Shown piece by piece: positions 5,631-63,236 of a DNA stretch of 64,000 nt (within the stretch, counting starts at the first letter, position 1; each line of letters begins with the position of its first letter). The stretch is taken from assembly GCA_964482735.1 (NCBI GenBank), contig CAYZYV010000001.1:80172-144171 (forward strand), in the 5' to 3' direction. Position numbers and translations under genes: made by a program. The notes under the pieces are model-generated. The model saw nothing but the letters and a program-made list of their open reading frames with translations, was not told the origin of the DNA and did not search any database. The DNA comes from an uncultured Candidatus Saccharibacteria bacterium. GTDB taxonomy: Bacteria; Patescibacteriota; Minisyncoccia; Phycocordibacterales; UBA9973.

Positions 5631-5659
5631 TTAGTGATTTTTTTAAAAAATCTAAATTG

Positions 5660-5718
5660 AGCCCACGATCGGAATTGAACCGATGACCTCGCCCTTACCA
5701 TGGGTGTGCTCTACCAAC
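5660..5718 (-). pseudogene. tRNA-Thr(GGU)-like 3' two-thirds lacking a 5' acceptor/D arm (pseudo-tRNA)
   Basis: Nearly identical to 5782-5854 from the D-stem 3' strand through the acceptor 3' strand. That stretch is GGTAGAGCACACCCATGGTAAGGGCGAGGTCATCGGTTCAATTCCGATCGTGGGCT. The 5' part is replaced by the 40-bp repeat at 5719-5758. Confidence 0.5.
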
Positions 5719-5758
5719 TCCTGCCCGCAATGCTTAAAGCATAGCTTTTGCAGGCGGG
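5719..5758. repeat. 40-bp GC-rich repeat CCTGCCCGCAATGCYTAAAGCATAGCTTTTGCAGGCGGG (copy 1 of 3)
   Basis: Same sequence at 63161-63199, with a variant at 63123-63160. It contains the crossed complementary blocks CCTGC/GCAGG and CCGC/GCGG. Confidence 0.6.
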
Positions 5759-5781
5759 GAGCTACAAAACTTCATCCGCTG

Positions 5782-5854: not shown

Positions 5855-5944
5855 TTATGGTTTTATTATATTACTATTTTTTTGTCTTTTTTACAATTAT
5901 CCTTGCATTTTTTTGGATTTTGGGTTATTATGCTTTTTATACAT

Positions 5945-6009
5945 CGCGGGATAGAGAAAAGGTATCTCGCAAAGGAATAATAGCTCGAATGACCTAAGGT
6001 TATGAGCCT
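5945..6009 (+). repeat. Partial direct copy of the initiator-tRNA 5' end plus an inverted copy of its anticodon arm
   Basis: 5945-5969 is CGCGGGATAGAGAAAAGGTATCTCG and matches tRNA positions 1-25 at 6059 with one change. 5993-6009 is CCTAAGGTTATGAGCCT, the reverse complement of the anticodon arm at 6083-6099. Confidence 0.55.
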
Positions 6010-6058
6010 GTTCCTTAAAAGGTTAGTTTTTGCATTTAAGTTTAAAGTTTGTACATAT

Positions 6059-6129
6059 CGCGGGATAGAGAAATGGTATCTCGTAAGGCTCATAACCTTA
6101 AGATCTTGGTTCAATTCCAAGTCCCGCAA
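6059..6129 (+). tRNA. tRNA-Met (CAU), initiator-like with a C1:A72 mismatch
   Basis: CGCGGGA / TA / GAGA-AATGGTA-TCTC / G / TAAGG-CTCATAA-CCTTA / AGAT / CTTGG-TTCAATT-CCAAG / TCCCGCA / A. Unpaired C1-A72 resembles bacterial tRNA-fMet, but the anticodon stem has only two G-C pairs. Confidence 0.65.
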
Positions 6130-6212
6130 CATTTATTTATAACCTATTTTAATAGAGGGTTTTTAAGGTTGAAAATATATTAAAATATGCTATATTTATA
6201 TCGCACAGATAG

Positions 6213-6290
6213 ATGTTGGTGTAGCTGTTTTGGTTAGGTTATATGTGAAATATGTCGGTGTAGCTGTTTTGGTTAGGTTATATGTGAAAT
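6213..6290 (+). repeat. 2 x 39-bp tandem repeat, a degenerate copy of the tRNA-Met 5' end and leader
   Basis: Unit ATGTYGGTGTAGCTGTTTTGGTTAGGTTATATGTGAAAT occurs twice. The third unit runs into the real tRNA, ATGTCGGTGTAGCTCAGCTGGTTAGAGC. The D loop CAGC is replaced by GTTT in the decoy copies. Confidence 0.7.
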
Positions 6291-6292
6291 AT

Positions 6293-6366
6293 GTCGGTGT
6301 AGCTCAGCTGGTTAGAGCGTGGGACTCATAAGCCCAAGGTCGGAGGTCCGAGCCCTCCCACCGACA
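6293..6366 (+). tRNA. tRNA-Met (CAU), elongator-type
   Basis: GTCGGTG / TAGCTCAGCTGGTTAGAGC / TGGGA-CTCATAA-GCCCA / GGAGG-TCCGAGC-CCTCC / CACCGAC-A. Resembles Bacillus elongator tRNA-Met. A lysidine-type tRNA-Ile2 is less likely given the tRNA-Ile(UAU) at 36116. Confidence 0.7.
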
Positions 6367-6367
6367 C

Positions 6368-6651: not shown

Positions 6652-6725
6652 GCAGCCGTAGCTCAACTGGTTAGAGCACCCGCCTGTCACGCGGGAGGTT
6701 GAGGGTTCAAGTCCCTTCGACTGCG
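6652..6725 (+). tRNA. tRNA-Asp (anticodon GUC)
   Basis: GCAGCCG / TAGCTCAACTGGTTAGAGC / CCCGC-CTGTCAC-GCGGG / GAGGG-TTCAAGT-CCCTT / CGACTGC-G. Anticodon arm identical to E. coli tRNA-Asp. Confidence 0.85.
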
Positions 6726-6735
6726 CAAATAAAAA

Positions 6736-6765
6736 AAGAAGCCTAAATGGCTTCTTTTTTTCAGT
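6736..6765 (+). terminator. Rho-independent terminator after tRNA-Asp
   Basis: GAAGCC-TAAAT-GGCTTC followed by TTTTTTT. Confidence 0.55.
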
Positions 6766-7060
6766 CGAAGGGACTTGAAAGACGGAGCACGACGGTGCGA
6801 GGCGGGGTCGCGAGATTTTTCAGCAGAAAAATACTTGTGACCAAGTCCCTCGTTTTGTATTTTATTTATATATACTGGGTGATTTTGTTTTTTGCATAAG
6901 AAGGGACTTGAACCGGGGGCTTGCGAAGCCCGCGACAGCGGAAAGCCCGAGTGGAGGTCAATGAAGTGAGATATTTTATGAGTGATAACGAAATAAAATA
7001 TCCACGAGAGTGACCAAGTCCCCCATTTTGCCTGCGTAGGGACTTGAACAGCGGAGTCAT
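6766..7060. repeat. Non-coding block of tRNA-derived fragments and mini-elements (GGGACTTGAA motif five times, both orientations)
   Basis: Inverted copy of the tRNA-Asp 3' end (CAGTCGAAGGGACTTGAA) at 6762-6780. TIR-like GGGACTTGAA / TTCAAGTCCC pairs bracket cores at 6770-6848 and 6899-7020. Confidence 0.55.
6941..7012. repeat. ~62-bp hairpin element, copy A; copy B at 39911-39985
   Basis: GAGTGGRGGTC...GTGAGATATTTTATGAGTGRTAACGAAATAAAATATCCACGAGAGTGACC, about 90% identical between the two loci. Contains a perfect stem GATATTTTAT / ATAAAATATC. Confidence 0.6.
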
Positions 7061-7171
7061 ATTTTTCTAACAAGAAAAATAGACGAGTTAGTGACTAGAC
7101 AAAAATTTTTGACAAAAGTGTTTTTTGAGAATAAGCTATAATTAAAATAAACCTTTTAAAAACTTAATAAC

Positions 7172-13313: not shown

Positions 13314-13781
13314 TTATTCGTAGACTATTTTAATTTGTCTTTCTACTGTTCTTATATTGTTTTTATTACAGATATTATAACCGTTCGCTATAATAGTAGT
13401 GGAAGGATCATTTTTGGTAGTTTGGATTCGATAACAGGGGTCCTGACTTTCCCCAATATTTCCAGAAGGCTCGATGTCATAACTTCCATCGATATTAGGA
13501 TCTACTGTCATATCAAAACCACCACAATTCCATGAATAACTTTCAAGATTTAGAAAATCTGGAATAGTGTCTTTTATTTCCATATCAAATAACAGCGCAC
13601 AGTCCGAAGCTGTATCTGCCATATAAAATGCAGTTTGAGAATCTCTAGACAAAGAAGAGAGAACTATTTGTTTATAAATTGCATTAGTAATACCAGCCGC
13701 AATAACAGAAATAGCGCTTACTATTATCACAGTAAACAAAATAGCATAACCTTTTTGATTTTGATTAAATGTTTTAAACAT
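13314..13781 (-). CDS. Pilus-associated protein with hydrophobic N-terminus (PilX-like minor pilin candidate)
   Basis: 155 aa with an N-terminal hydrophobic helix and no strict GFTLxE. First gene of the pseudopilin run. Confidence 0.4.
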   Translation of the reverse strand: MFKTFNQNQKGYAILFTVIIVSAISVIAAGITNAIYKQIVLSSLSRDSQTAFYMADTASDCALLFDMEIKDTIPDFLNLESYSWNCGGFDMTVDPNIDGSYDIEPSGNIGESQDPCYRIQTTKNDPSTTIIANGYNICNKNNIRTVERQIKIVYE

Positions 13782-13784
13782 AAG

Positions 13785-14402
13785 TTATTGCCATTTTGAT
13801 AAGGTAGTGGTTAACACTCTCGACTTATTTAAATTACCATTTTTCCAAGATACTTTTGCCGTTACTACCAACTGATCATCCCCCTCACTGACAACGGTTA
13901 ATGTTCTTTTAAAATTTGTTCTAGTCTTTCCAGATATTCCACTTGGATGATTGTTAGTCAAATAGAAAGAGTTACTTGTTGCCGTTTCATCTAGGTATAA
14001 ATATCGACAATCATCACTTGAACAAGTAAAGATATTTGAACCACTAGGCACGTTGACATCTATTGTACATCCCACAGAAGTATTGTTGCATTCGACATTA
14101 GTGTATTTAGTATAAAAATTAGTCCAAGCTGTGTTTATGTCATTTTCTACATTTAAAAAGACGCTGGTGTCCCTATCGTTTCTAACAAAATCAATGGCCT
14201 CTTGTAATAAATAATTTGCAGTAATCTCATCTCTTGCATATTTAGTTGCGAACAAACTATCAGATACCACAGTCATCAAACCAACAACTACAAAAGTCAA
14301 AATAAAAATAGCCGTCAACGCTTCTACCAAAGTAAAGCCACCATTTTTATTTTTAATGTCTTTAATTACCGTTATGTTGTTTTTTATTCTATTTATTATC
14401 AT
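13785..14402 (-). CDS. Prepilin-type minor pilin (pseudopilin)
   Basis: N-terminal class III signal GGFTLVEALTAIFILTFVVV (G-F-T-L-x-E). Confidence 0.6.
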   Translation of the reverse strand: MIINRIKNNITVIKDIKNKNGGFTLVEALTAIFILTFVVVGLMTVVSDSLFATKYARDEITANYLLQEAIDFVRNDRDTSVFLNVENDINTAWTNFYTKYTNVECNNTSVGCTIDVNVPSGSNIFTCSSDDCRYLYLDETATSNSFYLTNNHPSGISGKTRTNFKRTLTVVSEGDDQLVVTAKVSWKNGNLNKSRVLTTTLSKWQ

Positions 14403-14409
14403 AAAATCA

Positions 14410-15006
14410 TTAAAAATTCCTTTGTGATGCCATTGTTTGAATCATAAAAGAAGCTGGTTTGCCTTTAACATCAATCGTCCCTTTTAATAAAATATAAACA
14501 TTAGCTTGAGTTGAGTCATATGGGTTAGATCCTTTTACAAAAAACGTTAATTTATTGATATTAATATCAGAGGAGACAATCTCTATACAATCACTATCTA
14601 ATGTTCCAATACATCTCTGAATAGTATAGCTATCCACCTCTGTATCTCTTTTATGTAATTTATAGCTGACCCTTTCTTCCGAAAGACTGCCGTCATTTAA
14701 TTGTGGGACAAAAGAAAATAAATTCGCCCCCAAAGGACAATCTTGGGTATCAGTTATAAGATCAGGAACTGCGTCACCACAGTAATAATTCACACCCATT
14801 CTTATAGATCTAGTCATACTCTCCATTGCAAAATTAACATTATCCATTGAAAAACGAAGTCCTCGAGAATCCTTAGACGCCCCCATTAAAGCTATGAGTG
14901 ACCCGATAGAAGAAATGACAATTACAACAAAGACGGTTGTTGCCACCATAAGCTCTACTAGAGTGAATCCACCTTCGTTTTTAATTTTATTTTTTATATT
15001 AAACAT
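14410..15006 (-). CDS. Prepilin-type minor pilin (pseudopilin)
   Basis: N-terminal GGFTLVELMVATTVFVVIV. Confidence 0.6.
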   Translation of the reverse strand: MFNIKNKIKNEGGFTLVELMVATTVFVVIVISSIGSLIALMGASKDSRGLRFSMDNVNFAMESMTRSIRMGVNYYCGDAVPDLITDTQDCPLGANLFSFVPQLNDGSLSEERVSYKLHKRDTEVDSYTIQRCIGTLDSDCIEIVSSDININKLTFFVKGSNPYDSTQANVYILLKGTIDVKGKPASFMIQTMASQRNF

Positions 15007-15007
15007 A

Positions 15008-15694
15008 TTATTCTGATACGCTTATTTGCCCACTATTTGAGATCCGAATAGTTCTGATAGTCTCAACCCCTCCTGCAGTATTTTTAACATCTATTTTTAC
15101 ATAAACTACGTCTTCCATACCTATAGAGCAATAACCACTTAATGGATTTTCTTTGTAACAAAAAAACGGCTCTGGGTTAGGTCTATAAAAAACAATATCT
15201 AAGGCATCATCTCCGACCAAAGTACCTATCTCAGAATCACTGGCTCCATATATTTTTATACTTGATATTTCATCTGAACTTAATATCTTTAAAATTTCTA
15301 TACATTCATCTCCGTCGATTGGATCACCACATCCATTATAAGCTCCGTAATCATATCCATAGTTTTTATCACCCATTTCAGCAAACACCACAAACGATTT
15401 ATTGGAACTTTTATATTCATCTCCTGAAACTAGAGGGTTTATACTGAATCTAACTCCATAACCTCCAAGAAAAACATCATTTACCCCCCTAACCCCAATT
15501 GCGTAGCTTTGAGCCTTTCTGATAGAAAGTGCTATGTCATCAACTAAATTTTGAGTCGACATTGATGAATTAAATTGCCCATAGTTAAAAACAGTAACAG
15601 TACTAATCACCACAAAGATACTTATAACCACCATCATTTCTAAGAGGGTTGCACCTTTTGTGTATTTATTTTTGTTACCAAATTTAAACATCAA
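15008..15694 (-). CDS. Prepilin-type minor pilin candidate
   Basis: N-terminal KGATLLEMMVVISIFVVIS, a degenerate GxTLxE prepilin motif. Confidence 0.5.
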   Translation of the reverse strand: MMFKFGNKNKYTKGATLLEMMVVISIFVVISTVTVFNYGQFNSSMSTQNLVDDIALSIRKAQSYAIGVRGVNDVFLGGYGVRFSINPLVSGDEYKSSNKSFVVFAEMGDKNYGYDYGAYNGCGDPIDGDECIEILKILSSDEISSIKIYGASDSEIGTLVGDDALDIVFYRPNPEPFFCYKENPLSGYCSIGMEDVVYVKIDVKNTAGGVETIRTIRISNSGQISVSE

Positions 15695-15697
15695 AAA

Positions 15698-16513
15698 TTA
15701 AAAGGTAAAAATGTTAATTAAGGTATTAAAATTAAATCCAAAAAGAAAAGTGATTAGAATTCCAAGAATAAGAAATGGGGCAAAAGGAATTTCTGTTTTA
15801 AACCCAACTTTCTTTTTATTAAATATCATCATAGCTAGGCCTACAATAGCCCCTATCCAAAATGCAAGAATAACTGCAAATACCCCACCAGATAATCCAA
15901 GCATCCAACCTATCCCTATCATTAATTTTACATCCCCAAACCCCATCAATCTTCCTTTAGAAAATAGCCAGATTAAAACAAATGGTAATGCAATAATTGG
16001 ACCTGCAAAAATGTCTAGGAGTGCTGCCCAAGAAAAGATATTTCCAAATAGTAATAGATTTGAAATTGTTACCAAGAAAGATAGAAAGATAAACGGAAAT
16101 ACTGTTTTATTTGGGATAATTTTATGTCTCAAGTCATACACAAACATAACTATCAACAATGAAAATAGAATTAAATAGATAGAGGCATACCCGACATATA
16201 ACCAATAAGAAAAGAATAGGAATGGAATAAACTTAACAGAAACTGATAAGAATATTAATCCTGTTAGTATTTCAACTATTGGATATTGAGGAGAAATACG
16301 ACTTTTACATTTTCTGCACCTGCAACCTTGAATAAAATAAGATATCACAGGAATAAGTTCGAACCATCTCAATTTATGCCCACAAGTCATACACATAGAA
16401 CTGTCATTAACAATTTTTCGCCCCGAGTTAAGACGATAAATGACTACGTTAAGAAAACTCCCTATAATCGTTCCTAAAATAAATATAAAAATTAAAATAA
16501 GTATTGGTGTCAT
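15698..16513 (-). CDS. pilD: Prepilin peptidase (A24 family)
   Basis: Polytopic membrane protein with a cytoplasmic Zn tetracysteine (CMTCGH...CRCRKC). Conserved Asp-containing MGFGDVKLM motif. Confidence 0.85.
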   Translation of the reverse strand: MTPILILIFIFILGTIIGSFLNVVIYRLNSGRKIVNDSSMCMTCGHKLRWFELIPVISYFIQGCRCRKCKSRISPQYPIVEILTGLIFLSVSVKFIPFLFFSYWLYVGYASIYLILFSLLIVMFVYDLRHKIIPNKTVFPFIFLSFLVTISNLLLFGNIFSWAALLDIFAGPIIALPFVLIWLFSKGRLMGFGDVKLMIGIGWMLGLSGGVFAVILAFWIGAIVGLAMMIFNKKKVGFKTEIPFAPFLILGILITFLFGFNFNTLINIFTF

Positions 16514-16590
16514 ATGCTTTTATTATACCACCTTGTCCCCTAAAAACAAAAACAACCCGAGCAGGGTTGTTTTTAAGACACGTCTTAAAG

Positions 16591-17049
16591 CTAGCAGGTT
16601 GCATCTCCAGAAGCCAAAGTATTTCCTGTTGTTTGTTTTGAAGCCCCCGTTGAATCTACACACCAAGAATTAGAGCTGCTTGTTTTTAAAGGCATAGAAA
16701 CTGCCCACGCAGCACCACCTGTGGTAACTGAGCATACCCCAGTAGATGAACCACTCGCTGATTCTGCTGAAGCAAAAGCACTCCTAATAGTTGCATCTGT
16801 GAACACCCCCGTTCCAGCTGTATCACAAGTCCCATCTGCACTATAATACAATGCAGAACCATAGTTATTGTTTGTATCGTAATACATTTCTGCTTGAGCT
16901 CTCATGTTCGATAAGTTATTTTTAATCGCAGCATCTGCTCCTTTGTTTCTAGCACTATTTAATGATGCTAAAACAACAGATGACAAGATACCAATGATCG
17001 CAATAACAACCAACAATTCGATCAATGTAAAACCTTTGTTTTTGTTCAT
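16591..17049 (-). CDS. Type IV major pilin, paralog 1
   Basis: MNKNKGFTLIELLVVIAIIGILSSVVLASLNSARNKGADAAIKNNL: prepilin leader and N-methyl-Phe motif. Terminator AACAACCCTGCTCGGGTTGTT at 16546-16580. Confidence 0.8.
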   Translation of the reverse strand: MNKNKGFTLIELLVVIAIIGILSSVVLASLNSARNKGADAAIKNNLSNMRAQAEMYYDTNNNYGSALYYSADGTCDTAGTGVFTDATIRSAFASAESASGSSTGVCSVTTGGAAWAVSMPLKTSSSNSWCVDSTGASKQTTGNTLASGDATC

Positions 17050-17168
17050 ATTTATATAAAAATTGAATTCAATTTAACGACCATAGTAATATGTTATATT
17101 ATATCATTCTTTGTATATAAAAAGCAAAATACCCAAGCTTTTAACTTGAGTATTTTTATTCCTAACTA

Positions 17169-17624
17169 TTATGCACCGCAGTCTCCATCCGAATTTGAAT
17201 CTGTACCGGAAACTGAAGCCCCAGTCGAATCAACACACCAGCTACCTCCTGCTTTTAATGCAGCAGATGCGGACCAGGAACTAGCTTTTGCTCCACTCGT
17301 TCCACCCATTACACAAGTAGGAGCAGAGTTTGCAGACGTAATGGAAGCTATCATTGATGTTATGGTAGGGTCCAAGAAGACGCTTGTTGCTGCCGTACAA
17401 CCAGAGGCAGGAAGTGTAGCAACTGTCGCGCTGCTATATCCAGAATTTGTATCATAATACATTTCTGCTTGTGGTCTCATATTTGCCAAGTTGTTTTTAA
17501 TCGCAGCATCTGCTCCTTTATTTCTAGCACTGTTTAATGATGCCAAAACAACTGAGGACAAGATACCAATGATCGCAATAACAACCAACAATTCGATCAA
17601 TGTAAAACCTTTGTTTTTGTTCAT
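17169..17624 (-). CDS. Type IV major pilin, paralog 2
   Basis: N-terminal 48 aa identical to paralog 1, C-terminus divergent. Upstream 80-bp promoter block repeated. Confidence 0.8.
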   Translation of the reverse strand: MNKNKGFTLIELLVVIAIIGILSSVVLASLNSARNKGADAAIKNNLANMRPQAEMYYDTNSGYSSATVATLPASGCTAATSVFLDPTITSMIASITSANSAPTCVMGGTSGAKASSWSASAALKAGGSWCVDSTGASVSGTDSNSDGDCGA

Positions 17625-17742
17625 ATTTATATAAAAATTGAATTCAATTTAACGACCATAGTAATATGTTATATTATATCATTCTTTGTATATAAAAAGC
17701 AAAACCCTCAAGTTTAAATTGAGGGTTTTATATATTTTGCTT

Positions 17743-18192
17743 TTAGCAATCGTAATCGTTGGCTCCTAGGTATCCTGTTATCTGTTTTGAAGCCCCTGTA
17801 GAATCTACGCACCATGAATTGGCAGAGCTTGTCTTTAAAGGAGAAGAGGCTGCCCAACTACCAGCTTGAGAATGACATATTACAGTAGTAGATGTTCCGG
17901 CGGTAGCTGGAGCTGTAACCACAGAAGTTGCTCCAGCGGCACTTTTTGCTGATTCCAACATAGCAGCCACAGGGCTGGTTGTTGTAGTACACAACGTCGC
18001 ATAACTATTGCTATTGTCGTCATAGTGCATCTCAGCTTGTGCTCTGATGTTCGATAAGTTGTTTTTAATCGCAGCATCTGCTCCTTTATTTCTAGCACTG
18101 TTTAATGATGCCAAAACAACTGAGGACAAGATACCAATGATTGCAATAACAACCAACAATTCGATCAATGTAAAACCTTTATTTTTGTTCAT
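17743..18192 (-). CDS. Type IV major pilin, paralog 3
   Basis: Same N-terminus, C-terminus divergent with a Cys pair. Terminator AAACCCTCAA-GTTTAAAT-TGAGGGTTT at 17705-17735. Confidence 0.8.
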   Translation of the reverse strand: MNKNKGFTLIELLVVIAIIGILSSVVLASLNSARNKGADAAIKNNLSNIRAQAEMHYDDNSNSYATLCTTTTSPVAAMLESAKSAAGATSVVTAPATAGTSTTVICHSQAGSWAASSPLKTSSANSWCVDSTGASKQITGYLGANDYDC

Positions 18193-18305
18193 ATTTTATA
18201 AAATTGAATTCAATTTAACGACCATAGTAATACGCTAATTATATCATTTTTTGTATATAAAAAGCAAAACCTCCAGTTTAGACTGGAGGTTTTGCTTTTT
18301 AATTA

Positions 18306-19517
18306 TTAGTTGATTCCACCTGCGATATTGTAAATTGGAAGCAAAATAGAAGACAAAAGCACACCAACTCCAAGCCCAAGAATAACAATCATAATCGGCT
18401 CAATCAAGCTAACTAAAGTGTCGACAGCTTCATTAACTTCTCGGCTATAGAATTTACCTAACGTCTTAAGAATATTTCCCAAAGAACCGGTTTCCTCCCC
18501 CACCTTGATCATTCCTGACATTATGGATGGTATTTCCTGGTGTTTACTGAAAGCTAAAGATAGAGAACTACCACTTTTTACAGAGTCCGCAATATCTCTA
18601 AGCAGTCTTTCGTAAACAAGATTACCTACCACAACACTTGTAAGTTCTATTGCCCTAACGATTGGAATACTAGCGGAAAGCATAGTATCCATATTGTCTG
18701 ATATTCTTGATAAATATAATTTATTATAAATATTTTTAACAACAGGCAATGTAATTTTTAATTTATCAAAATAAAGTCTACCAGATGGTGTTTTAGAATA
18801 TCTAATAACATACACCACGAGAACTATAACTATAACTAGCAAGAAAATACCATAATCCACAAACAAATTACTGACAGCGATAATCAATTTAGTAGAAAGA
18901 GGAATTTCTGTTCCAGATTCGGCAATAATAGCAGCGAGTTTAGGCACGATAAATGTAAACATCAAAACCATCACGATCACGAATATTCCGACAACGAAAG
19001 AAGGATAGATTAAAGCATTTTTTGTCTTGGAAGTAAGTTGATATTGTCTATCCAAATAGTCAGCTAAATATGCAAAAACCTGAGTTAATTTACCTGACTC
19101 CTCCCCTGACTTAACCATATTAACGTAAAAGTCAGAAAAAGCTTCTTTATGTTTTGACAATGCAACAGAAATATAAACTCCAGATTTAATATCTTCAGCG
19201 ACTTCATTAAGAATAGAAGCCAACTTTTTATTGGTGGTATTTTCGGCAATAAGATTAAAAGCTTTAAGGGCAGACACTTGTGATTCAAACAAAGTAGACA
19301 TCTGACGAGACATCATCACGATATCTTTCATGGGGATACTTTTCTTTTCAAAAATAGAAAGATTAAAAAGGCCTTTTTTCTTTGTTGTTTCAGTTAACGA
19401 AGAAACAATATAACCTCTTTTTTGAACAGCGGCAATCGCCAAATCCTTATTGATGGCCTCTACAGAACCAACCTTGCGTTCTCCTTCTGCTGTAATAGCT
19501 TCGTAATTAAATAACAT
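18306..19517 (-). CDS. pilC: Type IV pilus assembly platform protein (GspF/PilC family)
   Basis: 403 aa, two GspF repeats and three TM segments. Terminator hairpin at 18262-18300. Confidence 0.85.
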   Translation of the reverse strand: MLFNYEAITAEGERKVGSVEAINKDLAIAAVQKRGYIVSSLTETTKKKGLFNLSIFEKKSIPMKDIVMMSRQMSTLFESQVSALKAFNLIAENTTNKKLASILNEVAEDIKSGVYISVALSKHKEAFSDFYVNMVKSGEESGKLTQVFAYLADYLDRQYQLTSKTKNALIYPSFVVGIFVIVMVLMFTFIVPKLAAIIAESGTEIPLSTKLIIAVSNLFVDYGIFLLVIVIVLVVYVIRYSKTPSGRLYFDKLKITLPVVKNIYNKLYLSRISDNMDTMLSASIPIVRAIELTSVVVGNLVYERLLRDIADSVKSGSSLSLAFSKHQEIPSIMSGMIKVGEETGSLGNILKTLGKFYSREVNEAVDTLVSLIEPIMIVILGLGVGVLLSSILLPIYNIAGGIN

Positions 19518-19527
19518 AAAAATTTAA

Positions 19528-20589
19528 CTAAAACAATTGTTCTAGAGCTTTAGGATTAATAGAATGATCATACGCACTTTCAAGACTAATTTCTCTTCTT
19601 TGGACCAAATCTATTAAACATCTATTCATGTCGACCATGCCCTCTCTCGAGGAAGTTTCTAGTACTGTGTCTATTTCGTGTGTTCTCTTTTCTCTTATTA
19701 AGTTTGCGATTGCTTTGTTATTTATCAAAAGTTCATAGGCAGGAACTCTTCCCCCTGAAACTCTTGGTATCAATCTCTGAGAGAAAATTCCGAGCAAGCT
19801 GGATGCTAACTGCAATCTAATTTGATCTTGTTGGTCTGATGGGAACGAGTCAATAATACGATCTATTGTTTGAGAAGCATTATTAGTATGAAGAGTAGAT
19901 AAGACCAAGTGTCCTGTCTCAGCTGCTGTCACAGCTGCTGCAATAGTTTCTGGATCCCTCATTTCTCCTATCAAAAGAACATTGGCATCCTCACGAAAAG
20001 CAGACTTAAGAGCACTCAAGAAAGTTTCAGTATCTGTTCCTACTTCTCTTTGACTAATTATTGATTTATCTGGTTTATAAATAAATTCAATAGGTTCTTC
20101 AATCGTTACTATGTGTCTAGATGATTCACTATTAATAAAATTTATCATTGTAGACAATGTAGTTGATTTACCTTGACCAACCGGACCAACCACCAAGAAG
20201 AATCCTTGTTTCTTCCTAGAAAAATCTTTAAGTATTTCGGGCAAGCTTAATTCTTCAAAAGTTTTTGGCTTTGGAATTAGACGAAGAGCCACTGAGGGAG
20301 TTCCTCTTTGGTAAAAAGCATTTCCTCTTAGCTGAGTTTGTCCTTCATTTAAATTGCTAGAGAAATCTATAACTTTATTTTTTCTAAAAATAGCAATCCT
20401 CTCTTGATCCAAAAGTACTTCAAGTATTCCAAAAACGTCCGCTTCTGTTGTCTCTTTGAAATTTACAAGAAAGATAAGTTCTCCATCTATTCGAATAGAT
20501 GGTTTAATACCAGTTCCTATGTGTAAATCGGAACCGTTTTGATTAATTAAATTTTCCAATAAATCATTAAATAGCTGCTTGTAGTCCAT
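19528..20589 (-). CDS. pilT: Twitching-motility / pilus retraction ATPase
   Basis: 353 aa. Walker A GPVGQGKSTT, Asp box, Walker B and His box typical of PilT-type secretion ATPases. Confidence 0.8.
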   Translation of the reverse strand: MDYKQLFNDLLENLINQNGSDLHIGTGIKPSIRIDGELIFLVNFKETTEADVFGILEVLLDQERIAIFRKNKVIDFSSNLNEGQTQLRGNAFYQRGTPSVALRLIPKPKTFEELSLPEILKDFSRKKQGFFLVVGPVGQGKSTTLSTMINFINSESSRHIVTIEEPIEFIYKPDKSIISQREVGTDTETFLSALKSAFREDANVLLIGEMRDPETIAAAVTAAETGHLVLSTLHTNNASQTIDRIIDSFPSDQQDQIRLQLASSLLGIFSQRLIPRVSGGRVPAYELLINNKAIANLIREKRTHEIDTVLETSSREGMVDMNRCLIDLVQRREISLESAYDHSINPKALEQLF

Positions 20590-36049: not shown

Positions 36050-36115
36050 ATAAAAAATAAATCTATCTTTGGAAGATATATAAATAAACTTTTTAACCTA
36101 TTAAAATTACTTTTG

Positions 36116-36189
36116 TCCGTCCTCTAGGATTCGAACCTAGGACCCCAGAGGTATAAGCTCTGTGCTCTAACCAGCTGAGCTAAGGACGG
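36116..36189 (-). tRNA. tRNA-Ile (anticodon UAU)
   Basis: CCGTCCT / TAGCTCAGCTGGTTAGAGC / CAGAG-CTTATAC-CTCTG / CTAGG-TTCGAAT-CCTAG / AGGACGG-A. Anticodon TAT read directly from the loop. Confidence 0.75.
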
Positions 36190-36240
36190 AAGTCTGGTTT
36201 ATTATTTAAAACTAAACTATTACAACCATACACTTCCCGC

Positions 36241-36273
36241 CTAACCAAAACAGCTAAGGACGGAAGTCTGGTT
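36241..36273 (-). repeat. Degenerate duplicate of the tRNA-Ile 5' end plus 5' flank (decoy copy with a GTTTT D loop)
   Basis: CTAACCAAAACAGCTAAGGACGGAAGTCTGGTT at 36241-36273 versus CTAACCAGCTGAGCTAAGGACGGAAGTCTGGTT at 36169-36201. Same CAGC to GTTT substitution as in the tRNA-Met decoys. Confidence 0.6.
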
Positions 36274-36386
36274 AAAGACATATTAACCAAAAAAACAGTT
36301 ATTTGCAAATTTTACCGAACACAATTAAAGAAACAAGGCCTTGAACAGTTAATTATAAAAACCTTACTTTCGTAAGGTTTTTATAA

Positions 36387-38273
36387 TTAATCTTCTTTTT
36401 TCTTTGGGATTATTCCGTTGGCAATTAGAATATCGTTATATTCTTTTTGTTCTAGGGTCTCTACTTCAATAAGCTTCTTGGCTATCACATCTAGAACATT
36501 TCTCTTTTCTGTGATTACCGTTCTAGCCTTAGCGAAAGCGTCTTTCATTATCTTTGAAACTTCTTCATCAATAACAGCGCTAACCTTCTCTGAATATTCT
36601 TTATCATCTACGCCTTGTCCAAAGATCGTTCTTCCACCATCGCTTTCGAGAGCTATTGGACCAATATCATCACTCATCCCCCATCTTGTAACCATAGCTC
36701 TGGCTAAACTAGTTGAGACCTGAAGATCGTTTGATGGGCCTGTAGTAATATCACCAAAGACTTCTTGCTCTGCAACATAGCCTCCGAGAGACATAGCGAT
36801 ATCATCAAGGAATTCTCTCTTGCTTTGCAATTTCTTTTCTTCCAACGGAAGCTTTAGTGTGTAACCACCAGCATGCCCACGAGAAACAATAGAAATTTTA
36901 TGAACAGGGTCTGCATCAGGAAGACATGAAGCAACAAGTGCATGCCCTGCTTCATGATAAGCAACAATTTCTTTCTCTTTGCCAGTTAACAAGTGACTCT
37001 TTCTCTCTGGACCCATCATGACTTTTTCAATAGAACGAATAAGATCATATTGAGAAACCTTTTTCCTGTCTTCCCTTGCTGCAAGAATTGCCCCTTCGTT
37101 CATAATTGAATATAGGTCTGCTCCAGAAAATCCTGGTGTACGTTCAGCAATCACTTTGAGATCAACATCCTCAGCAAACGGCTTCTTTCTGGCGTGAATA
37201 TTTAAAATTTCTTCTCTATCTTCTCTGTCAGGTAAATCAAGCAAGACTCTTCTATCAAAACGTCCTGGGCGAAGAAGAGCAGGATCAAGAACGTCAGAAC
37301 GGTTTGTTGCCGCCATAACAATCACCTTTTCGTTAGGTTCGAAACCATCCATTTCTACGAGTATCTGGTTTAAAGTTTGTTCCCTTTCATCATTTCCTCC
37401 TCCTACACCAGTTCCTCTCACTCGTCCAACAGCATCTATTTCATCTATAAAAATTATTGATGGAGCAGCTCTTTTGGCCATTTTAAATAAATCTCGAACA
37501 CGTGATGCTCCAACCCCAACGAACATTTCAACGAATTCTGAGCCAGACAAATGGAAGAATGGGACTGAGGCTTCACCGGCAACCGCACGAGCTAAGAGTG
37601 TTTTACCTGTACCAGGAGCACCTGTAAGAATTACCCCCTTTGGTATACGAGCCCCAATGTCCAAAAATTTCTTTGGATTTTTCAAAAAGTCTACAATTTC
37701 TTTTAATTCTTCTTTTGCTTCCTTAACACCAGCAACATCCTTAAATGTGACTTTATTATTTTTATCATTTGGATCAGTAATACGAGCTTTTGATTGCCCA
37801 AAAGAGAATGCTTGCATACCCTGTCCTTTCGCTTGTCTTGTTAAGGTCCAAACAAAAAATGCTATCAAAAGAACTGGTAGGGCAAAAGGTAATATTGCCA
37901 ATAAGACATAACCAAAGCTTGACTGATTTTTAATTTCTATAGGAGTTGCAGAAATTGTTTCTCCTGTGATTCCATAGTTAGATAAAGTTTCAGATAAAGA
38001 ACTTTCAGTTTCTTTTTTTGCTTTACCTTTTGTTCCATCTTTAAAATTAATATTAATGTTTTCTCCAGAGATAACAATTTTTTCAACAGAACCGTCACTA
38101 ACACTTTTAGCAACATCTGAAATTGTTAAATTTTTAACTTCTTCTTTTTTCTCTGAAATTAATGTATAAGCCAAAGTAATACTAAAAAATATCAAAATCG
38201 CTATCGTAATTTGATTCATTAGCCCAGGAACCTTTGGTTTTAATTGTTTTTTATTATCTTTACTTGTATTCAT
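36387..38273 (-). CDS. ftsH: ATP-dependent zinc metalloprotease FtsH
   Basis: Two TM segments. AAA Walker [12 protein letters not shown], and the Zn site HEAGHAL. Confidence 0.9.
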
Positions 38274-63122: not shown

Positions 63123-63199
63123 CCTGCCCGCAATGCTTTCGCATAGGCGATGCAAGCGGGCCTGCCCGCAATGCCTAAAGCATAGCTTTTGCAGGCGGG
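63123..63199. repeat. Two tandem units of the 40-bp CCTGCCCGCAATGC...GCRRGCGGG repeat (copies 2 and 3)
   Basis: 63123-63160 and 63161-63199. The second unit is nearly identical to 5719-5758. Confidence 0.6.
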
Positions 63200-63236
63200 C
63201 CACCTTTCAATAAGTATTTTCTTGTATGAATCTTTC

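Follow-up and report, generated by a model that had tools for sequence, protein, structure and literature searches.

Why should a transfer RNA (tRNA) gene be preceded by partial copies of its own 5' end in which the same four bases have been rewritten? The question is raised by two loci in a 64,000-nt stretch of DNA from an uncultured Candidatus Saccharibacteria bacterium (contig CAYZYV010000001.1, positions 80,172 to 144,171; hereafter the window), where the genes for elongator tRNA-Met(CAU) and tRNA-Ile(UAU) follow short units that reproduce the leader, the 5' acceptor strand and the beginning of the D arm of the tRNA concerned, with D-loop positions 13-16 (C13, A14, G15, Y16) changed to GUUU. 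In this study, we show that such units recur upstream of tRNA genes of several types, and they look like a recurrent and apparently undescribed leader element of tRNA transcripts across the Patescibacteria. A full-text search of the literature found no description of upstream copies of tRNA 5' ends; the nearest paper deals with group I introns in the tRNA genes of Patescibacteria and does not mention such copies (PMC13011429). We tentatively favour, as a possible rather than a probable explanation, that the units act in cis as a tRNA-derived leader module on the precursor RNA, in which a competing fold is coupled to a reader acting in trans.

Upstream of tRNA-Met, a repeat search recovers three in-register 39-nt copies, the third of which (6286-6324) is the true 5' end of the gene, and the two tandem 39-bp units that an earlier note on this DNA had described as mirroring the tRNA 5' end and leader are thereby confirmed (Table 1). 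In each of them a copy of the acceptor strand (GTTGGTG in the first, GTCGGTG in the second) is followed by TAGCTGTTTTGGTTAGG and then by TTATATGTGAAATAT, where the gene itself reads GTCGGTG followed by TAGCTCAGCTGGTTAGAGC. The duplicate reported upstream of tRNA-Ile(UAU) is a 33-nt repeat of the 5' region of that gene (36241-36273, 88% identity), made up of the leader AACCAGACTT, CCGTCCT and TAGCTGTTTTGGTTAG(G), the corresponding part of the gene being TAGCTCAGCTGGTTAGAG; on exact alignment the replacement of CAGC by GTTT is identical in all three units. The middle of the spacer between the Ile unit and its tRNA may be a decayed second unit, but at this locus the resemblance is not significant (p=0.79). 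The 17-mer TAGCTGTTTTGGTTAGG occurs exactly three times in the 64 kb, always at a Met or Ile unit, and up to three mismatches bring the count to four against 0.22 expected, a number reached by none of 100 shuffled sequences. The view of the earlier note that the shared edit is not a matter of random duplication is supported. ARAGORN calls the intact genes only, the units fail the tRNA covariance model RF00005 (E<=10), and an Rfam search at the gathering threshold and at E<=10 matched only the true tRNAs and the transfer-messenger RNA (tmRNA). No GTTT-type motif was found at window tRNAs with other D arms (Ser, Gln).

The motif precedes tRNA genes well beyond this window. A scan for the exact 17-mer over one genome per species (185,579 species, 596 Gb) gave 35 loci, about 18 of which have a tRNA, or a tRNA cut off by the sequence end, on the same strand 11-120 nt downstream, and all of these come from Patescibacteria or unclassified metagenome-assembled genomes. 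The remaining 17 loci, of which 16 lie in other phyla (Flavobacteriaceae, Pirellulaceae, Variovorax and Lactiplantibacillus among them) and one in Shapirobacteria (L016), have no tRNA nearby and come close to the chance expectation for a 17-mer in 596 Gb. Within the Patescibacteria lineage the motif was not frequent away from tRNA genes, and the proposal of the earlier note that TAGCTGTTTTGGTTAGG is a conserved motif placed before them is borne out. A looser pattern, which also admitted the TGGTAG variant, added 17 tRNA-linked cases among 124 metagenome matches; none of its 120 matches in viral contigs was linked to a tRNA, and a phage or attP origin was rejected on this count. In total, at least 35 genome and metagenome loci of Patescibacteria carry the motif upstream of a tRNA, always on the tRNA strand, and the tRNAs concerned are Met, Asp, Ile(UAU), Val(CAC/GAC/UAC), Thr, Lys and Phe, which have the D arm TAGCTCAGYTGG(T)TAGAGC in common. 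At one metagenome locus (L159) a perfect GTTT unit stands 73 nt upstream of a tRNA for which ARAGORN gives the anticodon UUA ('Stop'), and which possibly acts as a suppressor, or serves a reassigned codon, in an unidentified lineage of the candidate phyla radiation (CPR).

The units are 34-44 bp long and correspond to a tandem duplicate of about -16 to +23 of the tRNA gene, their homology with it stopping at position 22/23. The 39-nt Met period spans -16 to +23, and its copies are head-to-tail and polymorphic in number, as in a simple tandem duplication; such a duplication explains the origin of the units but not the constant GTTT. Each unit is also matched to its own tRNA. The acceptor copy agrees with the cognate acceptor at five or more of seven positions in 41 of 44 units and at all seven in 26 (chance of at least 5/7, 0.013 per unit), and acceptor copies follow lineage-specific acceptors, as in the pairs GCGATTG/ATGATTG, GCGGGTG/GCGGGTG and GCGGGCG/GCAGGCG. 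Moreover, tRNAs with TGGTAG carry TGGTAG units and tRNAs with TGGTTAG carry TGGTTAG units, the exception being two TGGCTAG tRNAs with TGGTTAG units. Among additional units that were found by acceptor similarity alone, GTTTTG was present in eight of the nine D-arm-class cases, which indicates that the rewrite is a rule more than an effect of the search. On the 3' side of the motif, conservation across classes goes by tRNA type, Asp units having G(G/A)CAAGCA in both Saccharibacteria and Paceibacterota, and Phe, Thr and Val units having GGTAGGTATACGC. Distances from unit to unit or from unit to tRNA are bimodal (34-44 nt and 54-78 nt), and spacers of the long-distance group mostly show a weak alignment with a second unit where the offset would place one, clearly so in L013 and marginally elsewhere; judged by these alignments, the most plausible reading of the group is a pair of units, the one nearer to the tRNA having decayed. 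Arrays of two or three units are found in L036, L038 and L150.

Table 1. Positions in the window of the Met and Ile units, the tRNA genes that follow them and associated features
Feature	Position	Strand	Remarks
Met unit 1	6208-6246	+	Leader-like GATAGAT, acceptor copy GTTGGTG (6/7)
Met unit 1 core, TAGCTGTTTTGGTTAGG	6222-6238	+	Start of spacer after core
Met unit 2	6247-6285	+	Leader GAAATAT, acceptor copy GTCGGTG (7/7)
Met unit 2 core, TAGCTGTTTTGGTTAGG	6261-6277	+	Spacer after core
Elongator tRNA-Met(CAU)	6293-6367	+	ARAGORN, Rfam; D arm TAGCTCAGCTGGTTAGAGC; CCA not encoded
Ile unit	36240-36273	-	Leader copy AACCAGACTT at 36273-36264
Ile unit acceptor copy, CCGTCCT	36263-36257	-	7/7 match to tRNA-Ile
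Ile unit core, TAGCTGTTTTGGTTAGG	36256-36240	-	
Ile spacer, unit to tRNA	36190-36239	-	50 nt; ends in duplicated leader AACCAGACTT
tRNA-Ile(UAU)	36115-36189	-	ARAGORN, Rfam
Sigma-70-like promoter, TTGAAA-16 nt-TATATT	6169-6196	+	TG-extended, 10/12; upstream of Met unit 1
Possible promoter, TTGCAA-17 nt-TAATAT	36280-36308	-	8/12 by eye, below scan threshold; weak
Initiator tRNA-Met	6059-6130	+	ARAGORN, Rfam
Initiator-tRNA 5' pseudo-copy	5945-5969	+	24/25 copy of 6059-6083, shared TACAT leader
Antisense copy of initiator anticodon arm	5995-6009	+	15-nt perfect inverted repeat

Because promoter-like sites tend to precede the units, these are probably transcribed within the 5' leader of the pre-tRNA, together with which RNase P would then cut them off. 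At the Met array the -10 hexamer of the sigma-70-like promoter ends 18 nt before the first acceptor copy; in the relative L289 a TTGAAA...TAATAT sequence stands 9 nt before the tRNA itself, and within the window phoH has a canonical TTGACA-18-TATAAT upstream. The weak candidate at the Ile locus lies upstream of the unit and downstream of the ftsH terminator hairpin (36348-36391). Over all loci, the mean of the best promoter scores ahead of the first unit is 7.97 as compared with 7.19 in shuffled sequences, with 12 of 34 loci scoring at least 9/12, a score attained in one of 20 spacers between unit and tRNA. Units also occur between two tRNAs of one cluster (L027, L038, L012), and in general they lie between a promoter-like site or a preceding tRNA and the mature 5' end. 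When 35 predicted precursors were folded, the 3' acceptor strand of the tRNA paired with a copy in 20 of the minimum free energy (MFE) structures, with the true 5' strand in 12 and with neither of them clearly in three; pairing with the copy is predicted for the window Met precursor in both the MFE and the centroid structure and for the Ile precursor in the centroid. In these predicted folds, the copy can compete seriously for the 3' strand of the tRNA.

According to the explanation that we tentatively favour, the copied acceptor strand would compete with the true 5' strand for the 3' acceptor strand of the tRNA. In the established structure of tRNA, C13 closes the D stem, and U8 and C48 have their universal tertiary partners in A14 and G15. 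Since C13, A14 and G15 are always replaced, the copy-paired conformer cannot become a tRNA: without them and the 3' half of the D stem it would have neither a D arm nor a tertiary core, and it would expose the invariant CUGUUUUGGU(U)AGG as a single strand. The identity of the U-rich core in at least eight tRNA families implies a sequence-specific reader acting in trans, possibly an elongation or processing factor or an endoribonuclease, that would resolve or discard the copy-paired conformer. Taken as a whole, such a mechanism would put a brake on tRNA maturation, or a checkpoint into it, that is built into the transcript and can be tuned through the number of units.

Several observations weigh against this proposal. 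A competitor role alone needs no constant four bases, and the acceptor mismatches of older units are not biased to wobble-compatible changes, so that acceptor identity may reflect recent duplication or gene conversion and not selection. Most units were found through the motif itself, and their 'invariance' is in part a matter of ascertainment. No conserved secondary structure was found in 42 units compared with shuffled sequences by RNAfold (mean z -0.57), a subset being significant but sharing no common fold, and nearest-neighbour folding ignores both tRNA tertiary structure and co-transcriptional order. The promoter enrichment is modest and the genomes are AT-rich. Finally, the units are dispensable, patchy and polymorphic within a species, and the orthologous Met and Asp genes of relatives with about 80% PyrG identity (L289-L294) have no GTTT units in the same gene order.

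The first of two unlikely explanations that we take equally seriously is that the unit is a linear, protein-binding leader signal of the BoxA type, whose core GCUGUUUUGG would bring a factor, NusB-NusE-like or other, onto RNA polymerase or the nascent RNA; the likeness to tRNA would then be a matter of ancestry, duplicated 5' ends having been exapted, since only a few substitutions separate the D-arm sequence from such a motif. The identity of the core over at least eight tRNA families and several classes fits this well, as does its leader position in a stable-RNA transcript, and partly decayed units (L013, L012) keep CTGTTTTGGTTAG and lose the acceptor copy. The core AGCUGUUUUGGU also resembles published BoxA sequences, which vary between phyla (PMC7665894) and have been given as UGCUCUUUA in E. 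coli (PMC2724277), as the consensus GYTCTTTAANA (PMC5725501) and as GGCUCCUUGGCA or GGCUCCUU in Aquifex (PMC3177189). Compared by eye with the 8-9-nt BoxA core, AGCUGUUUU agrees in the G, the C, the U and the U run, at five or six of eight positions. However, the C at position 4 of the consensus is critical in E. coli, where mutations of it abolish function (C4T, PMC5725501; boxA16, listed in PMC2724277), and every unit has G where E. coli BoxA has this C after GCU, a difference for which E. coli is the standard while BoxA itself differs between phyla. BoxA, the known motif nearest to the core, which loads NusB-NusE/S10 at lambda nut sites and in the leaders of rRNA and CRISPR transcripts, is likewise a short, single-stranded, U-rich and orientation-dependent leader motif (GCUCUUUA or GGCUCCUUGG, as against GCUGUUUUGG here), but the units adjoin a copy of their own acceptor, are often tandem, are restricted to one D-arm class and dispensable, and are known here from sequence. 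Short and structured tRNA transcripts have no obvious need for antitermination against Rho, the window Ser and Gln tRNAs, which have other D arms, lack the motif, and the cognate-matched acceptor copies are left unexplained.

The rapid turnover of the units bears on a second explanation. In two assemblies made independently from the window species (L001, L002) there are three Met units against the two in the window, the third being identical to Met unit 2, and a further contig (L003) starts inside the array; the Met array is real, but how many copies it has may differ between strains or have been reduced by collapse during assembly. In L001 (1381-1419) and L002 there is in addition a 39-nt insertion directly upstream of tRNA-Thr(CGT) that is not in the window and consists of a diverged GTTT-type unit (GTCAAAGTGGTTGTTTGGTAGCGGG..., GTCAAAG TGGTT GTTTGG TAG CGGGAAAAG...). 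Whole units thus show presence/absence polymorphism within the species. It is conceivable, with about the same low likelihood as a BoxA-type signal, that the units are non-functional scars of recombination-prone tRNA genes, GTTT marking an old scar lineage that spread horizontally with a tRNA cassette and was homogenised, in genomes that are naturally competent and rich in introns and endonuclease genes and in which partial 5' duplications and displaced 5' remnants arise repeatedly. Besides the patchiness among close relatives and the gain or loss of whole 39-nt units, this would account for the visible decay of tRNA-proximal units and is in keeping with the type IV pilus/competence genes in the window, with LAGLIDADG, HNH and GIY-YIG genes in the same slots, and with remnants without GTTT in relatives, namely tRNA-Gln positions 1-22 in L287, the reciprocal Gln alleles of L287 and L290, the disrupted Asp copy in L290 and the nested tRNA-Thr in L289. 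Yet the distribution of the units is patchy while the motif is identical in distant classes, and a 17-mer evolving neutrally would have diverged between Saccharibacteria, Paceibacteria and others. One scar, moreover, cannot yield the same four-base change in Met, Asp, Ile, Val, Thr, Lys and Phe units, each of which has the acceptor of its own tRNA and its own TGGTAG or TGGTTAG form; the clear insertion remnants (Gln, Thr) retain an intact D loop, and insertion alone gives no GTTT.

It is improbable that the unit works at the DNA level as a mimic of the D arm, that is, as an uncleavable or non-recombining pseudo-site for a recombinase or homing endonuclease, or as the footprint of such an enzyme. 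The geometry would be suitable, for the copy retains gene positions 4-12 and 17-22, with exactly 4 bp changed between conserved flanks of about 9 and 7 bp, and LAGLIDADG sites have a 4-nt central overhang. LAGLIDADG genes abut tRNA-Asp genes or Asp units in the clade, and the tRNA-Thr pseudogene of the window has its D loop interrupted by a palindromic repeat. However, these LAGLIDADG genes go with a group I intron at tRNA-Asp anticodon positions 35/36, their likely target (PMC13011429), no enzyme gene is linked to the window Met or Ile units, and an enzyme directed at this shared D arm would cleave essential tRNA genes in large number. Integration does not produce tandem arrays with identical spacers, and nothing is inserted between copy and gene. 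The same holds for the recombinase inside the D loop that the earlier note had considered, an idea that is not supported: the spacers between copy and gene measure 11-54 nt and hold neither a recombinase nor a mobile element, the units are tandem with a number that varies by strain, and the homology breaks at 22/23 and not at the changed bases.

We regard as very improbable a promoter or operator function at the DNA level, with the motif as a -35-like or factor-binding site for a downstream tRNA promoter. The GTTT patch does lie 16-18 bp upstream of an AT-rich box directly before many tRNAs, but CTGTTT makes a poor -35 hexamer, transcription from a -10 box directly adjoining the tRNA would begin within the tRNA, and the genome has canonical sigma-70 promoters upstream of phoH and of the Met units. 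The low frequency of promoter-like spacers (one in 20 at 9/12 or better), the variable distance from motif to tRNA (11-54 nt) and the non-palindromic, strictly co-oriented motif also speak against it. An assembly artefact (chimeric or collapsed repeats at tRNA genes) might be read into the contig start inside the array in L003 and the differing copy numbers, but we consider it next to impossible, the same architecture being present with lineage-specific sequence in dozens of independent assemblies, projects and lineages.

Other candidates were tried and rejected. The att-site copies left by tyrosine integrases are likewise direct repeats of part of a tRNA beside the intact gene, but they derive from the 3' end, the anticodon loop or the T loop and flank kilobases of DNA with an integrase, while the units are tandem 5' ends with a 4-nt rewrite; an integrase scar was rejected on the spacers of 11-54 nt, which hold neither element nor integrase, and on the copied part, which is the leader with positions 1-22 and not the 3' part. 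The genes flanking the units are those for the initiator Met and Asp tRNAs, ftsH and a gene for a PaaX-like protein. A terminator was rejected for want of a stem before the U run, a riboswitch or T-box-like structured RNA because no fold stabler than in shuffled sequences is common to the units, and the NusG TTNTTT pause motif and T-box UGGN/NCCA pairing because, by eye, the sequences do not fit or covary.

Known systems resemble the units in part. The E. coli tyrT operon has 178-bp repeats each ending in a 3' piece of tRNA-Tyr; these too are tandem repeats with a fragment of the adjacent tRNA, presumably generated by unequal recombination and transcribed with the tRNA, but they lie downstream, copy the 3' end, belong to one species and have no constant rewritten patch. 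In mimicry leaders, such as the operators of ribosomal-protein and ThrRS genes and the T-box, leader RNA likewise imitates or pairs with a stable RNA; those leaders control protein genes and have defined, covarying folds, whereas here a linear 5' quarter without a conserved fold precedes the very tRNA that it imitates. The ToxI RNA of type III toxin-antitoxin systems similarly consists of tandem 36-40-nt repeats of variable copy number under one promoter, but its repeats precede a toxin that processes them and are not derived from the downstream gene, and no toxin is linked to the units.

The tRNA loci of the window and its relatives have further peculiarities. With regard to the initiator tRNA-Met, the earlier note had reported a 25-bp upstream copy of its 5' end with a change in the D loop; the copy is real (24/25), but it does not share the GTTT edit, consisting of the acceptor and an intact D arm, D stem included, with a single T to A change in the D loop, and it is a separate kind of element from the GTTT units. 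The perfect inverted repeat of the anticodon arm that follows it (Table 1) includes AUG opposite the CAU anticodon, and this antisense copy might base-pair with its tRNA, whether in cis or in trans. The initiator leader module (window 5903-6058) is conserved in a Nomurabacteria relative (L292, 4590-4711), where the antisense copy of the anticodon arm is 12 nt long and follows L292's own tRNA at one position; it is absent from L289 and L290.

At 5658-5765 on the minus strand the window contains a second copy of tRNA-Thr(GGU) that neither ARAGORN nor Rfam called. Over the 3' three-quarters it has 92% identity with the gene next to it, its 5' acceptor strand reads AGTTTTG instead of GCCCACG, and its D loop carries, right after TAGCTC, a 39-nt palindromic insert, CCCGCCTGCAAAAGCTATGCTTTAAGCATTGCGGGCAGG, which is also present in L001 and L002. 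A split or permuted tRNA was rejected here, since the missing 5' strand is not found elsewhere in the window. The palindrome is a dispersed GC-rich repeat resembling repetitive extragenic palindromic (REP) sequences or miniature inverted-repeat transposable elements (MITEs), with two tandem copies downstream of a gene at window 63140-63200 (minus strand) and one between the initiator and elongator tRNA-Met genes of L292 (4790-4825). In L289 (7314-7420) the resident tRNA-Thr(CGU) is interrupted after position 23 by another, complete tRNA-Thr(CGU) gene bordered by the arms of the palindrome, so that one tRNA sits within another.

Endonuclease genes are frequent at these loci. A LAGLIDADG_3 family of about 225 aa, with 1,731 homologues (E<=1e-10), stands directly upstream of tRNA-Asp in many Paceibacteria (L289, 5545-6216; L291-L294, 5001-5687; L021, 464-1141; remnants in L012 and L041). 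Its reading frame enters tRNA-Asp and stops at U8-A9-G10 (TAG) in L289 and L291-L294, and in L021 it ends in the TAG of the Asp GTTT unit. In L291-L294 and L021 the tRNA-Asp gene is interrupted right after CCTGT, at anticodon-loop positions 35/36, ARAGORN calling an intron in L294 only; the tRNA-Asp of L289 is intronless. The LAGLIDADG gene looks like a free-standing endonuclease travelling with the tRNA-Asp intron; in a published survey, most tRNA introns had no endonuclease genes. In close relatives, GIY-YIG (86 aa) and HNH (128 aa) genes lie directly upstream of tRNA-Gln and tRNA-Met (L287, 5134-5555; L290, 5047-5421 and 12470-12585; L289, 6285-6756). L287 has a displaced tRNA-Gln remnant comprising positions 1-22 with an intact D loop upstream of the GIY-YIG gene, and L287 and L290 have two tRNA-Gln alleles in reciprocal combinations of gene and remnant, which suggests gene replacement by insertion.

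The 3' side of tRNA-Asp looks like a classical integration hot spot. In the window (6706-7100), the tRNA-Asp 3' end and a bidirectional terminator are followed by an 18-nt perfect inverted copy of that 3' end (6762-6779) and several T-arm-like fragments; the stretch from tRNA-Asp to phoH differs between strains, a 171-aa open reading frame being present there in L006-L008 (1-850), and in L290 the 3' end of tRNA-Asp recurs twice more, in direct orientation, downstream of the gene. The tRNA cluster as a whole is a hot spot in this clade.

The window itself is a low-GC (about 34%) chromosome segment with eight tRNA genes and tmRNA, on which ARAGORN and Rfam are concordant; no rRNA genes were found in it or in the 290 fetched loci. 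The Met units lie in the neighbourhood pyrG, ftsX, ftsE, prfB, tRNA cluster, PIN-PhoH, gatA and ligA, and the window PyrG is 75-77% identical to proteins of Candidatus Nomurabacteria, Patescibacteria group and Parcubacteria RAAC4_OD1_1, which points to a Paceibacteria-type member of the Patescibacteria. All four tRNA genes that were read at the 3' end (initiator Met, elongator Met, Asp and Ile) lack an encoded CCA, and these tRNAs therefore need RNase Z-type cleavage and a CCA-adding enzyme. On the minus strand, 13314-20589 contains six pilin-like genes with an N-terminal methylation motif together with genes for a prepilin peptidase, a PilC-like protein and a PilB/T-like ATPase; this cluster encodes the type IV pilus/competence apparatus usual in CPR bacteria, and it bears on DNA uptake and on recombination at conserved tRNA genes.

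Whatever the units do, the motif is a simple and specific sequence signature of the phylum, and the units mark tRNA genes as unusually dynamic loci, beside group I introns, homing-endonuclease genes and palindromic repeats. Even as a by-product they matter, as they break assemblies and can mislead tRNA annotation. Patescibacteria make up a large share of bacterial diversity, and the expression and processing of their stable RNAs are almost unstudied. We advance only with considerable doubt the more specific idea that the units are an undescribed, tRNA-specific control element derived from the regulated gene itself, in which the leader-borne copy competes with the genuine 5' strand as the precursor folds, a dedicated factor reads the CUGUUUUGG core and the number of units sets the output of functional tRNA. 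If the units are functional, they would be the first known lineage-wide cis element acting on tRNA precursors, a case of regulation from a copy of the regulated RNA, and, if this idea is true, they would represent a regulatory principle for tRNA biogenesis in organisms from which most conventional regulators have been lost.

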